A stretch of 64,000 nucleotides of DNA from Bacilli bacterium (GCA_030602345.1 JAUVZX010000001.1:131251-195250), one strand, 5' to 3'. Counted from the stretch's first letter, positions 7,601 through 34,705 are shown. Translations and numbers: made by a program. Notes: generated by a model from the letters alone, not told the origin.

Positions 7601-7960
7601 TTAGTTAACTGTAACTTTATAAACATGTCGATTATTTTCTAAAGTAATCGTAATAAAAGTATCATTAGAAAACCTTTGTTTAGTCTTAGGATTAATTAAT
7701 TCTCGTTTAATATATCCTCCATTTTTTAGTTCTTCTAATGAAACAATATAACTTTGACCATTTATTCTAGGTAAGTTTTCAGGATAATCAACTTCCCAAT
7801 TTTTAACTGCACTTACCATTAATTTAATTTGAACTTCATATGCACTGTCTGCAGAACCTTTAATATAACGATCAATCGATGGAATAACAATCGCCGACAC
7901 TAGTGCTAAAACGACAATAACTGCCAATATTTCCATTAAAGTAAATCCTTTATTTTTCAT
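7601..7960 (-). CDS. Type IV pilin / competence pseudopilin ComGC-like
   Basis: MKNKGFTLMEILAVIVVLALV has a class III signal (G|FTLxE, Glu+5). At 119 aa it is ComGC/major-pilin sized. Confidence 0.75.
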   Translation of the reverse strand: MKNKGFTLMEILAVIVVLALVSAIVIPSIDRYIKGSADSAYEVQIKLMVSAVKNWEVDYPENLPRINGQSYIVSLEELKNGGYIKRELINPKTKQRFSNDTFITITLENNRHVYKVTVN

Positions 7961-8002
7961 ATAATCACCTACTTTAATTATAACATAAAAAAAGAAATAA
8001 TT

Positions 8003-8407
8003 TTATTTCTTTTTACTGTTTTCTAATTTAGAAACTACATCTTTAGCTACTATTAAAGCTTCTTCTTTTAAATTTTCTACTGCCTCTTCTACTAAAGGTT
8101 GTCCTTTTTCCTTAGCCATCTTTAACATTTCATCTAATTTCTTTTCGATTGCTTTAGATGCTTTTTTAGCATTTGCTAAAACTTTTTCTTTATTTAAAGA
8201 TTCTATTTCTTTTTTAATTTCTTCCATTTTTAGAAGAGCGTTTTCTTTAACTTCTTCCAAGTCAATTTCTTCAATTCTTTTTAGAACTAAGTCCATTTCC
8301 TTTTTTAAAATTTCTCTCGTTTCTTTACCACTTCTAGGTGCAAATAAAACTCCTAATGAAGCTCCAATAGCAGCTCCTGCTAAAAACTTCGATAATCCTT
8401 TTTTCAT
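8003..8407 (-). CDS. YtxH-like general stress protein
   Basis: N-terminus MKKGLSKFLAGAAIGASLGVLFAP followed by a coiled-coil region, typical of the YtxH family. Confidence 0.6.
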   Translation of the reverse strand: MKKGLSKFLAGAAIGASLGVLFAPRSGKETREILKKEMDLVLKRIEEIDLEEVKENALLKMEEIKKEIESLNKEKVLANAKKASKAIEKKLDEMLKMAKEKGQPLVEEAVENLKEEALIVAKDVVSKLENSKKK

Positions 8408-8408
8408 T

Positions 8409-32560: not shown

Positions 32561-32666
32561 GAAAACCCCCTTTTTAACCACAAAAAAGAACGATGTCGTC
32601 TTTTTTTGTTTCCCTATTATAAGTATAACATCATTCTTTTATTTTTTGTTTACTATTTACATATTT

Positions 32667-33380
32667 TTACATATTTAAAAGAAAGTTCTTCAAATCTAAT
32701 AATCTACTATCATGAGGATTAAAACTAATAATTTTATCTATCAATTTAATATAAGTTTTATTTTCTTTTGAATACTCTAAACTATAATCAAAATTATAAT
32801 CAAACATCAAAGCTAAAATTAAAATATAATGATCTATCTTGCTCTTCACCTGAGAATGATTTATAGATTTTTTACTTAAAAAAGTATTATAAACTTCATC
32901 ATTAATACACTCATCAATAGTAACTATTCTTAATTCTTCTGATAAATACAAGTTAATTATGTCTAACTTGTCAGCATCTCTTATTATGTTTGTAAATAAA
33001 ACTTCTCTATCAGTAAGTTCTTTACCCACCTCAAATTTATTATGATAAAAAATAGCTTTTTTAATCAAATCTATCTCTTCTTCACTATTAAAGATTGGTA
33101 CTTTTTCAATCATTTCGATTCCTAACTGTGCATGATCAGTAGATATTGAATCATCAAAGGTATTATATAACCTCAACTGCTCAAACCTTCCAATGTCATG
33201 CAAAAGACCAATTAAACCTGCTAAACGAACATCTTTTTCATTTAAGTTTATCGATTTAGCTATTTCAATTGAAAAATTCACAACTCTATATGTATGTGCT
33301 TCTTTTAGACCAATACCCTTTTGGGTATAATCATAATCTTTTAAAAATTCTTTAAACGCCTGTATTTCTATCAATTCCAC
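32667..33380 (-). CDS. HD domain phosphohydrolase
   Basis: HD motif (…LLHDIGRFEQ…), 237 aa. Confidence 0.7.
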   Translation of the reverse strand: MELIEIQAFKEFLKDYDYTQKGIGLKEAHTYRVVNFSIEIAKSINLNEKDVRLAGLIGLLHDIGRFEQLRLYNTFDDSISTDHAQLGIEMIEKVPIFNSEEEIDLIKKAIFYHNKFEVGKELTDREVLFTNIIRDADKLDIINLYLSEELRIVTIDECINDEVYNTFLSKKSINHSQVKSKIDHYILILALMFDYNFDYSLEYSKENKTYIKLIDKIISFNPHDSRLLDLKNFLLNM

Positions 33381-34705
33381 TCACCTAAAAACAAATATGT
33401 CCCATCATCATCATTTATACCTGCAGCTATTTTCATATTGGATAAACCAGTTTCTAAGTTGAAGTCGTGATAACAATAGTTACCATTAACTGCATCAACT
33501 TGCATACCTGATAAACTTCCACCTTTGCCATAACAAGGTTCATAAAAAGGTGAATTTACCGCTAAATATTTTACTATGGCAATACCTGAACCACCAGAGC
33601 CACCAGTTCCCAATCTTGCACCACCGCCACCACTACCTGTAGCAGGTTGACCATTACCACCATTAGCATTATTAGCTCCAGATCCACCTCCACCAATTCC
33701 GCCCAAGGTTGTTGCTCCACTATTATTAGTCTGACCACCTCCACCAGCATATGTAACACTAGTTGTTCCGGGAGAATATCTTGTTGGATTAAAAATAGTT
33801 AAAGTTATGCCCGCTCCTCCAGGACCCCCTGTTGTTCCAGGGGCAGATGCTCCTCCACCAGAACCATGATTATATGGTGAAGAATAGTTTGATGCTCCTC
33901 CCTGATTACCATAACCTGTTCCTCCACCATTATTAGTTTGGGTAGAGGGACTTACTAAACCAGCAGGGTTCATATGACTTGCTCCTCCACCAGAACCTCC
34001 AGACCTTAAAGAAGCATCTTGGCTTGCATTGGATGGTCCACCGCCAAACGCTGTGAAAATCGTTGTTTGTCCTGAAATACTATTAAATAAACCAAAGGTA
34101 GAATCTCCACCTTTACCCCCTACACCCGAAGTTGAACCAGGGCCTCCAGAACCTATGTTGGCAAAATACTCCTGACCAGCACTTGCAACGACAAAACCAT
34201 GAATTACACCTCCGGCTCCTCCGCCACCACCGCCATAAGCAGTTCCTTGGCCGCCACCACCGCCAGCAATAACTAAAACTTCCATTTGAAATTCAATCGG
34301 ATCTATTATTTCGATCGTTCTTACAAAAAAACCTAATCTACCTTTAGAATCCAAAACTTCATATAAAATAGTATATGAACCATTAACATTATAATCAAAA
34401 GAAGGAGAAGATATATAACTTATTCTCTCTGGCGCTAATTTATTTCCCAAATTATCATAAGCTAATACGCCATCTAGCAAATCTATTTCTACTCCTCTAG
34501 ACCATTTTATATTTCTGCCAGTAACAACAAAATTAGGAAGAATTGTCGTTCCATTTAATTCAAGTTCTATTTCTTTATTTATTCTATCTAGATTTACTTT
34601 TGTTGCTCCTAAAACACCTAATATTCCTAGTATTAATACTAAGAATAAGATGAAAATTGGATATAGTATCCCAGATATAGCAAATCCTTTGTTATTTAAT
34701 TTCAT
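33371..34705 (-). CDS. Glycine-rich secreted/membrane-anchored protein with Ig-like (DUF5011-like) domain and non-canonical pilin-like N-terminus
   Basis: The N-terminus MKLNNKGFAISGILYPIFILFLVLILGIL has G|F but no Glu+5. Residues ~60-140 have an Ig-like pattern (…VTGRNIKWSRGVEIDLLDGVLAYDNLGNKL…GSYTILYEVLDSKGR…). Then ~250 aa of GGGG(x)G-rich repeats follow. Confidence 0.45.
   Translation of the reverse strand: MKLNNKGFAISGILYPIFILFLVLILGILGVLGATKVNLDRINKEIELELNGTTILPNFVVTGRNIKWSRGVEIDLLDGVLAYDNLGNKLAPERISYISSPSFDYNVNGSYTILYEVLDSKGRLGFFVRTIEIIDPIEFQMEVLVIAGGGGGQGTAYGGGGGGAGGVIHGFVVASAGQEYFANIGSGGPGSTSGVGGKGGDSTFGLFNSISGQTTIFTAFGGGPSNASQDASLRSGGSGGGASHMNPAGLVSPSTQTNNGGGTGYGNQGGASNYSSPYNHGSGGGASAPGTTGGPGGAGITLTIFNPTRYSPGTTSVTYAGGGGQTNNSGATTLGGIGGGGSGANNANGGNGQPATGSGGGGARLGTGGSGGSGIAIVKYLAVNSPFYEPCYGKGGSLSGMQVDAVNGNYCYHDFNLETGLSNMKIAAGINDDDGTYLFLGEWN

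Follow-up and report, generated by a model that had tools for sequence, protein, structure and literature searches.

Modular pilins, proteins whose small pilin module of the type IV class is joined to a functional module, were defined by Raynaud et al. (2021), and PilB of Streptococcus sanguinis has been shown to be one of them; more than 1,200 such proteins in 264 architectures are on record (PMC8179133). The filament shaft of S. sanguinis consists of the major pilins PilE1 and PilE2 (PMC8179133, PMC9934059), the lectin module of its PilC binds glycans, and PilA, which lacks Glu5, forms a modelled tip complex with PilB and PilC (Shahin et al., 2023; PMC9934059). By the classical definition, pilin and assembly genes of type IVa pili are dispersed over several loci (PMC6916266), and in the fibre-degrading gut Firmicutes Ruminococcus albus and R. 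flavefaciens type IV pilins have been linked to polysaccharide adhesion (PMC3672088). Here we describe a set of type IV prepilin-like genes in a 64,000-nt stretch of DNA from a Bacilli bacterium (GCA_030602345.1, JAUVZX010000001.1: 131251–195250); "the window" below means this whole stretch, and positions are counted from its first letter. Ten open reading frames (ORFs) on the minus strand, between 7601 and 32560, begin with a class III (prepilin) signal, as judged by regular expression and by eye. We consider it probable (about 0.6) that their products make up one type IV filament, in which variable small shaft pilins are combined with glycan-binding modular pilins and for which the machinery is encoded elsewhere. 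The ten ORFs and one further pilin-like ORF are as follows (aa, amino acids; CBM, carbohydrate-binding module).

7601–7960, minus strand: stand-alone type IV pilin of 119 aa (N_methyl 26.9 bits, TIGR02532 28.1 bits; leader MKNKG, mature start FTLMEIL)
15018–16517, minus strand: FGE-like modular pilin of 499 aa (N_methyl 28.3 bits; pilin module of about residues 1–125 plus a module of about 370 aa)
16565–17590, minus strand: putative pilin-CBM paralogue of 341 aa, tandem trio (N_methyl 38.1 bits; alignments of the paralogues and of the family, A1)
17642–18562, minus strand: putative pilin-CBM paralogue of 306 aa, its central module being the trio's most divergent (N_methyl 38.3 bits)
18614–19594, minus strand: putative pilin-CBM paralogue of 326 aa (helix alpha1, pilin beta-sheet, beta-sandwich and conserved C-terminal tail)
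26780–27088, minus strand: short pilin of 102 aa, candidate shaft (major) subunit (N_methyl 37.1 bits)
27118–27459, minus strand: short pilin of 113 aa, candidate shaft subunit (N_methyl 37.2 bits)
27596–27922, minus strand: short pilin of 108 aa, candidate shaft subunit (N_methyl 37.3 bits; alignment A2)
28016–28966, minus strand: modular pilin of 316 aa with LamG (Laminin_G_3; signal G/FTVFEL, the slash marking the predicted cleavage site)
30311–32560, minus strand: modular pilin of 749 aa, leader MFKKRKKG (N_methyl 36.7 bits; CE2_N, E 8e-18)
33371–34705, minus strand: Gly-rich protein of 444 aa with a pilin-like N-terminus lacking Glu5 (Gly_rich_2, E 2.7e-14)

The set resembles that of S. 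sanguinis in several respects: both hosts are monoderm and low in GC, both join a small pilin module to a functional module, and both have a lectin module of the concanavalin A/LamG type (28016–28966 in the window). In addition, the Glu5-less partner PilA may be compared with 33371–34705, and the several major pilins (PilE1/PilE2) with the three short pilins. However, the pilin and machinery genes of S. sanguinis lie in one pil locus, whereas the pilin genes of the window extend over 27 kb among housekeeping genes, and the window has more modular pilins (at least six), in which no vWA module was seen. Dataset S1 of Raynaud et al. lists fusions of IPR012902 with PF13385 (229 proteins, the commonest), IPR005532 (8 proteins) and IPR003305 (7 proteins), which correspond to the LamG, FGE-like and CBM_4_9-like fusions of the window, and has no occurrence of a pilin fusion with CE2_N (PF17996) (PMC8179133). 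A further difference is that Pfam did not see the CBM module in the three trio proteins of the window themselves, for which a structure model was needed. The idea of a preliminary description of this DNA, that a pilus or pseudopilus serves as a display scaffold for diverse C-terminal modules, is therefore reasonable but is not new, being the published modular-pilin model. Its view that such an organisation is unusual for a low-GC Gram-positive is not supported, since PilB and PilC of S. sanguinis are the paradigm, the architectures have been listed, and scattered pilin genes are common in relatives.

The diderm type IVa pili of Neisseria and Pseudomonas share short leaders, small pilins and scattered genes with the window, but they have a secretin and PilY1-type adhesins, whereas the host of the window is monoderm. 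Neisseria retains variable pilin copies; variation arises there through silent pilS cassettes, whereas the copies in the window have their own promoters and start codons. A diversity-generating retroelement or silent cassettes as the origin of the variable modules were considered and rejected, as there is no reverse transcriptase and the repeats are gene duplicates only. In Ruminococcus the link with adhesion concerns the pilins and filaments themselves and is not known to involve appended CBM or lectin modules. The bindosome of Sulfolobus is similar in that sugar-binding proteins carry a prepilin-type (class III) signal; it differs in being archaeal, in having dedicated Bas assembly genes, and in consisting of solute-binding ABC-transporter proteins rather than CBM or lectin modules.

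Results

Prepilin signals and family structure

Each of the ten ORFs opens with a Lys-rich leader of 4–8 residues whose last residue is Gly; next come F-T-(L/V)-x-E-(L/I)-L and a run of hydrophobic residues, and F+1 and E+5 are present in all ten. Nine of them scored above the gathering score of Pfam N_methyl (PF07963), and the same nine were above the cut-off of NCBIfam TIGR02532, which bears out the earlier reading of these genes as type IV prepilin-like. The tenth, the LamG protein, has G/FTVFEL by eye but was scored by neither model. A back-translated G-F-T-L-I-E-L pattern gave eight matches, each of them at the start of an ORF and in its frame, where shuffled sequences would give 0.07, and the regular expression revealed no further prepilin motif in the 64 kb. 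The start of the 749-aa pilin is the ATG at 32560 and not the GTG at 32581, as indicated by the Shine-Dalgarno sequence and by the homologue P0013.

Over mature residues 1–50, the members of the tandem trio (341, 306 and 326 aa) are 98–100% identical, the three short pilins are 88–92% identical, and the 749-aa protein shares 66–70% of residues with either group. The proteins at 7601, with the FGE-like module and with LamG reach just 20–42% identity with the remaining pilins of the window, and 7601 also has a head of another type. A nearly identical N-terminal helix, which had been ascribed to all of them, is thus a property of seven of the ten (66–100% identity) but not of these three. The synonymous divergence (dS) within the trio is 0.21–0.29 in the helix and 0.42–0.48 in the head, and that of the short pilins in the helix is 0.68–1.25; the corresponding nonsynonymous values (dN) for the helix are 0–0.008 in the trio, giving a dN/dS of about 0–0.03, and about 0.10–0.12 in the short pilins. 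Because helix dN is low despite substantial dS, the identity of the helices reflects strong purifying selection and not recent duplication. Neither these values (dS 0.2–1.2 with low helix dN) nor the distant relationship of three of the ten to the others supports the proposal of a single, recently expanded family.

Gly-1, Phe+1 and Glu+5 do not vary among 24 homologues of the CBM pilins (A1) or among 30 of the short pilins (A2), although the homologues are overall only 25–60% identical. Such invariance would reflect the needs of a pilin that is cleaved and polymerised, and would be unexpected for a plain signal anchor. Likewise, the near-frozen alpha1 helix of the trio is what would be expected of a filament core rather than of a mere signal anchor.

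Extra modules of the pilins

Pfam identified a Laminin_G_3 domain (concanavalin A-like lectin) at residues 166–308 of 28016–28966 (E 1.3e-21, 77.8 bits), as well as three CE2_N/CBM-like beta-sandwich stretches and a weak CBM_6 match in 30311–32560. The trio has a common plan, in which a pilin module of 150 residues comes first, the central region diverges strongly and the tail (...GAGNEPT..QMD...VWI...FTAGGW.TF) is conserved, and no Pfam family matched the variable central modules. An AlphaFold2 model of 18614–19594, built with 24 homologues (pLDDT 88.4, pTM 0.81), comprises a helix at 7–58, a pilin beta-sheet at 67–128 and a separate beta-sandwich at 164–284. As modelled, this protein is a canonical lollipop pilin, with a long alpha1 and an antiparallel beta-sheet head. 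The modelled sandwich resembles carbohydrate-binding modules of the CBM4/16/22 type, and one homologue of the trio carries a precomputed CBM_4_9 match. In the model the sandwich is superposable on solved CBMs and has a ligand-binding cleft, features that place it in the CBM4/9/16/22 superfamily of galactose-binding-like beta-sandwiches.

The FGE-like module (about residues 125–497) reached 23.0 bits against FGE-sulfatase (PF03781), for which the gathering score is 23.3, over profile positions 111–195 only, and the profile was matched in two of the seven members of the FGE-like family. The family of the module comprises 839 cluster representatives at E ≤ 1e-30; among the best 150 of these, about 60 are full-length pilin fusions, and there are also giant proteins with several copies. 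The best PDB match of the FGE-pilin family profile was PilE1 of S. sanguinis (8pfb_G, E 4.6e-7). What had been described as an FGE fusion is hence a large and often pilin-fused module, but its relation to FGE-sulfatase is borderline. The C-terminal 40 residues of the module end in '...WLERGGSATSSTASIFSY...MGFRLTISNR' ('RGGSATSS...GFRL'). By eye, Cys is missing from this C-terminus at what we take to be the place of the FGE catalytic Cys pair, which would suggest a non-enzymatic binding module.

When the LamG, FGE-like and 749-aa proteins were compared with PDB sequences (phmmer), they matched pilin helices only, or nothing. The window proteins with extra non-pilus domains combine such a domain with the IPR012902 motif and so are modular pilins in the sense of the definition. 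The preliminary description was right that the pilins carry extra C-terminal modules, which are LamG, CE2_N/CBM-like, FGE-like and, by prediction, CBM4/16/22-like. The folds of these modules suggest that they may bind glycans.

The short pilins have 97–108 mature residues. In the family of 27596–27922 conservation is seen over the first 58 residues. The last 45–60 residues of the short pilins are delimited by two Cys and are hypervariable from one homologue to the next. The AlphaFold2 model of 27596–27922 has a high-confidence helix at 8–62. Structure models, which had been proposed as a check for a pilin head followed by extra modules, thus gave the expected arrangement for 18614–19594, but for the short pilin the head was of low confidence and without a Foldseek match.

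Transcription units

Promoters and terminators were called from sequence patterns only. Upstream of most pilin genes there is a hairpin with a T-run, together with a -10 box of the extended type (TGTTATAAT or TGTTATACT) and a Shine-Dalgarno sequence that is strong. Two upstream elements recur:

17582–17643, minus strand: 62-nt terminator-plus-promoter cassette (hairpin, TGTTATACT, AGGTAGGGG Shine-Dalgarno; copies 95–100% identical)
7961–7993, minus strand: extended -10 and Shine-Dalgarno region (TGTTATAATTAAAGTAGGTGATTAT) before the 7601 pilin, found by comparison of upstream sequences

Copies of the cassette lie at 17582–17643, 18554–18615 and 19586–19647, one before each trio gene, with a hairpin at 18615–18595 within the cassette. 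The -10/Shine-Dalgarno region of 7601 (25 nt) is nearly identical to 16518–16550, before the FGE-like pilin. The gene at 26780–27088 starts 29 nt downstream of the preceding pilin gene, the only such close spacing in the set, and is followed by a terminator-like hairpin at 26761–26742; a promoter-like TTGACT-17-TATATT with TG lies at 27515–27487, before 27118–27459. As every gene would have a terminator and promoter to itself, besides a strong ribosome-binding site, piecemeal expression of the set would be possible.

A pilin-like protein lacking Glu5

The N-terminus of 33371–34705 is MKLNNKG/FAISGILYP, with Gly at +5 in place of Glu, and the protein did not match the pilin models; its domains are Ig-like (a weak match) and then Gly_rich_2 (E 2.7e-14). 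Its suggested place as an eleventh prepilin is accordingly favoured by the KG/FAISG start but not by the missing Glu5 and the lack of a pilin-model match. The motif MKLNN[KR]GFA[IV]SG recurs in two other loci, with a Gly-rich domain in L067 and with an FGE-like module in L085, each within 4 kb of canonical pilin genes. Tip subunits that lack Glu5 are known, namely the K pilin of the HIJK complex and PilA of S. sanguinis (PMC9934059). By analogy, 33371–34705 may be a K-type or tip subunit; its membership of the system is uncertain, and we regard the tip role as a lead, not a finding.

Organism and relatives

The window has a G+C content of about 29%, and the minus strand holds nearly all genes up to 40 kb. 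In a search of 185,579 species genomes, the best matches of its elongation factor P (EF-P, encoded by efp) were only 72% identical and belonged to metagenome-assembled genomes (MAGs) of uncultured gut and environmental Bacilli, labelled 'Firmicutes bacterium CAG:822', Candidatus Coprosoma, Candidatus Faecisoma and Mollicutes/Tenericutes/Erysipelotrichaceae. Two complete chromosomes among these relatives are 1.3–1.5 Mb in size, and a core of nfo-(sodA)-PBP2-efp is kept.

Eighty efp-anchored loci, together with further low-GC metagenome contigs with pilin genes, were compared with the window. About 30 of the 80 contain one to three prepilin genes (115–950 aa, some with the FGE-like module), and the window, with nine prepilin genes within 10 kb on either side of efp, is the densest. 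Homologues of 7601, 31–40% identical, occur in about a dozen of these loci. The closest relative found (L173; 242-kb JGI contig Ga0645783_00386) has an FGE-like pilin that is 53% identical, followed by LemA (71%) and DUF2207 in the order of the window.

Scattered pilin genes are found at other sites as well. In a rabbit-gut MAG (L082; GCA_947628685.1, 9554–13948), nine tandem pilin genes of 129–152 aa lie between gpr and der, where a related contig (L086, 10001–10393) has a single pilin, and the nine-gene array is a lineage-specific expansion. A wastewater contig (L177, 7879–10990) has three tandem CBM-pilin paralogues after polC, and other low-GC contigs have pilin genes between rnj and ftsY, beside lepA, or between lepB and rbgA. 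In other organisms the pilin module is fused to LRR, DUF285, Big_2, fn3, DUF1566, DUF6273 and other domains. Scattered orphan pilin genes, single or in arrays of up to nine, are thus common in related uncultured Bacilli MAGs. As scattering and modularity are both seen in relatives, they are features of the clade and not an oddity of the window, in which, as had been pointed out, the pilin genes are dispersed among housekeeping genes and do not form one pilus operon.

Search for the assembly machinery

The machinery was searched for by phmmer with PilB, PilT, PilC and PilD from metagenome loci and by hmmsearch with small profiles built from them. In agreement with the preliminary description, phmmer, hmmsearch and Pfam found no pilus ATPase, platform protein or prepilin peptidase in the 64-kb window. 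Pfam assigned 20 other ORFs of the window, the least obvious included, to housekeeping or unknown families only and to no pilus family, and no Peptidase_A24 homologue was found in the window or in the Bacilli-like loci searched. Neither PilC nor PilD lies near the pilin genes in any of about 50 low-GC loci taken from metagenomes.

In a related lineage, consisting of MAGs labelled 'Bacilli bacterium' or 'Erysipelotrichales bacterium', a stand-alone T2SSE ATPase is conserved in a fixed setting of housekeeping genes (L114, 3133–5622; L167–L172 and L176, about 10001–12900). Its gene follows recU, ponA and an unannotated ORF of about 100 aa and is adjoined by tsf-rpsB, and an orphan 200-aa pilin between engB and der lies 5 kb away. 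NCBIfam scores of this ATPase were 480 bits for GspE, 473 for PilB, 254 for ComGA (cut-off 300) and 175 for PilT. Its Walker A motif reads GATG[TS]GKS; it also contains a tetracysteine motif, lacks the N1 domain and carries an acidic, low-complexity C-terminal tail of 350 residues; it has thousands of relatives.

Separately, an 834-kb contig with a GC of 0.27 (L155; Ga0074193_1000001) has a complete Tad-type set at 2276–10390 (two TadE-like genes, TadZ, TadA/CpaF, TadB and TadC). Immediately downstream of this set are murC and two pilin genes with GFTLxEL (378 and 129 aa).

Neighbouring genes

The 7601 pilin gene is followed by genes for a 176-aa membrane protein, a GGDEF protein (diguanylate cyclase) with a periplasmic-type sensor and BrkB/YihY (window 5009–7960). 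A contig from sage-grouse caecum (L131) retains the order pilin-GGDEF-BrkB, which hints at cyclic di-GMP signalling beside the pilin gene. An Rfam scan of the 64 kb gave only transfer-messenger RNA (tag GNTYNLAFA) and the ribosomal L10 leader (43602–43942 and 1444–1560), with no riboswitch, for cyclic di-GMP or any other ligand, upstream of the pilin genes.

The FGE-like pilin gene (15018–16517) lies directly upstream of DUF2207-LemA-DUF2207; in this group (10653–14971) LemA stands between two DUF2207 paralogues, both with glycine-rich tails (…GGGFSSGGGGGGFGGSGGGF). The order of FGE-like pilin, LemA and DUF2207 is kept in L173, and the linkage may therefore exceed chance. P0013 (114 aa; Logan/ENA contigs of up to 3160 bp from other samples) joins the N-terminus of the 749-aa pilin to its last ~55 residues at a repeated 'AAE(E/V)Y', and may be either a natural module-less deletion variant or an assembly collapse.

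In most relatives (L020 and others), the germination protease gene gpr and spoIIP lie directly upstream of nfo. The window has the LamG pilin and the three short pilins in that place (26697–29019), and no sporulation genes were seen in the 64 kb. In L177, genes for thioredoxin and DsbD_TM (244–1366) lie about 6.5 kb upstream of the CBM-pilin trio, with polC, two small ORFs and a collagen-repeat gene between DsbD_TM and the pilins; this proximity is of possible interest because the pilin heads carry conserved Cys pairs. About 3.5 kb downstream of efp in L002, L003, L006 and L007 are ORFs of 1523–1530 aa with FtsK/EssC-like Walker motifs, which suggest that these relatives, the nearest by EF-P, have an ATPase of type VII secretion, and which are absent from the window.

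The region 51780–64000 of the window contains, by eye, a block resembling a Firmicutes-type conjugative element, not pilus machinery, in which there is also a lipoprotein:

51780–53975: VirD4/TcpA-like coupling ATPase (by eye)
54628–56202: M23-type peptidase (by eye)
56224–58014: VirB4-like ATPase (by eye)
58876–61122: multi-pass membrane protein of 748 aa (by eye)
62966–63967: ParA-like protein (by eye)

Pfam matched no family for the three ORFs scanned in this conjugative-like block (51.8–64 kb).

Discussion

The likeliest account of the window pilins as parts of one filament would run as follows, where cleavage, polymerisation, the location at the tip, glycan binding and the presence of the machinery in the genome are all steps that we infer. 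The prepilins would insert in the membrane, where a prepilin peptidase with its gene outside the window would remove the Lys-rich leader of 4–8 residues by cleavage behind Gly. A PilB/GspE-type ATPase and a platform protein, likewise encoded elsewhere, would then extract the mature pilins and polymerise them via the conserved alpha1 helix of each. The three small pilins would be the likely shaft subunits, possibly in a heteropolymer, and the large proteins would be minor modular pilins at or near the tip of the filament. There they would present a LamG lectin, three divergent CBM4/16/22-like sandwiches, three CE2_N/CBM-like repeats and the FGE-like module, and these modules may mediate adhesion to polysaccharides or to glycans of host or partner cells.

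Several results weigh against this account. No gene for PilB, PilC, PilD, PilM/N/O or PilT was found in the window or in the 80 efp-anchored loci, and PilC (T2SSF) and PilD were not found in any of the low-GC Bacilli-like loci searched. The lineage with the stand-alone ATPase and the lineage of the window have no marker in common, and in one relative (L053) recU-ponA has no ATPase behind it. In addition, the modelled head of the short pilin is small and of low confidence, with no significant Foldseek match against the PDB, and the binding-site sequences of the putative glycan-binding modules are highly divergent.

The class III signal might merely process and anchor sugar-binding proteins, perhaps as short stubs resembling the bindosome, which would provide a general route of display in a sortase-poor lineage. 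That most of the large proteins carry carbohydrate-binding modules and that none of the approximately 50 low-GC pilin loci has assembly genes nearby would fit such anchoring, as would the reported absence of srtA/B sortases from RFN20 and ML615J-28, two related orders of uncultured Bacilli (PMC10868615). Nevertheless, three small pilins without modules, lying beside a lectin pilin, look like shaft subunits; the invariant Glu+5 and the near-frozen alpha1 helix point to packing between subunits; an extension ATPase of the PilB/GspE type is present in a related lineage; and the relative L067 has a sortase-like gene. We therefore consider display by anchoring alone unlikely.

The filament might instead be a competence (Com-type) pseudopilus, with the small pilins as ComGC equivalents for DNA uptake and the large ones as accessory subunits. 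The small pilins are of ComGC-like size, carry a 'VPN' motif in the helix and have two Cys, as ComGC of Bacillus subtilis does, and ComGC was their top or second NCBIfam match, a partial one, at 35.6–41.9 bits. However, these scores cover the helix only and lie far below the 75-bit cut-off of NF040999 (best 41.9, for 26780–27088), and the 7601 pilin, previously called ComGC-like, reached only 26.7 bits against that cut-off. Neighbours resembling comGA or comGB are absent here and in relatives, the ATPase of the related lineage scores as GspE/PilB (473–480 bits) and stays below the cut-off for ComGA (254 against 300), and the attached modules have predicted glycan-binding rather than DNA-binding folds, so that a role in competence appears more doubtful still. 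It is most improbable that the genes are relics of a system that has lost its machinery, decaying or co-opted for membrane-anchored proteins, since, despite the lack of machinery in the 64 kb and in the loci of the nearest relatives searched and despite the reduced genomes (1.3–1.5 Mb), none of the 11 ORFs is disrupted, each has a predicted promoter of its own and a strong ribosome-binding site, the residues for processing and assembly are invariant across homologues, the dN/dS of the trio helix is about 0–0.03, and the pilin families are maintained in many organisms.

A type IV filament of shaft and modular pilins could have a wider role. In this deep-branching clade of uncultured Bacilli with small genomes, it might be the general surface-display and adhesion system, every component of which, from shaft pilins and a tip subunit without Glu5 to the many modular pilins and even the ATPase, would be an independent single-gene unit between housekeeping operons, and the divergent CBM-tipped pilins might be interchangeable like the receptor-binding proteins of phages, switching the glycan, host or partner cell that is recognised. 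We offer this as speculation that is unlikely to hold.

In summary, the window adds two things to the known modular pilins. One is a well-preserved, dense group of pilin genes from a monoderm clade about which little is known, all of them orphans between housekeeping operons; the other is a predicted CBM-pilin fusion that escapes sequence models. It extends the modular-pilin concept to a new clade and provides a case of extreme gene scattering in a monoderm, while the general picture of type IV pili is unchanged. The pilin-CBM, pilin-lectin and pilin-FGE-like fusions are a rich natural set for studying how type IV filaments make room for bulky modules. If our reading is true, a little-known lineage of small-genome Bacilli devotes a large share of a 27-kb housekeeping region to glycan-binding pilus subunits, and attachment, whether to fibre, mucus or another cell, would be central to its lifestyle.

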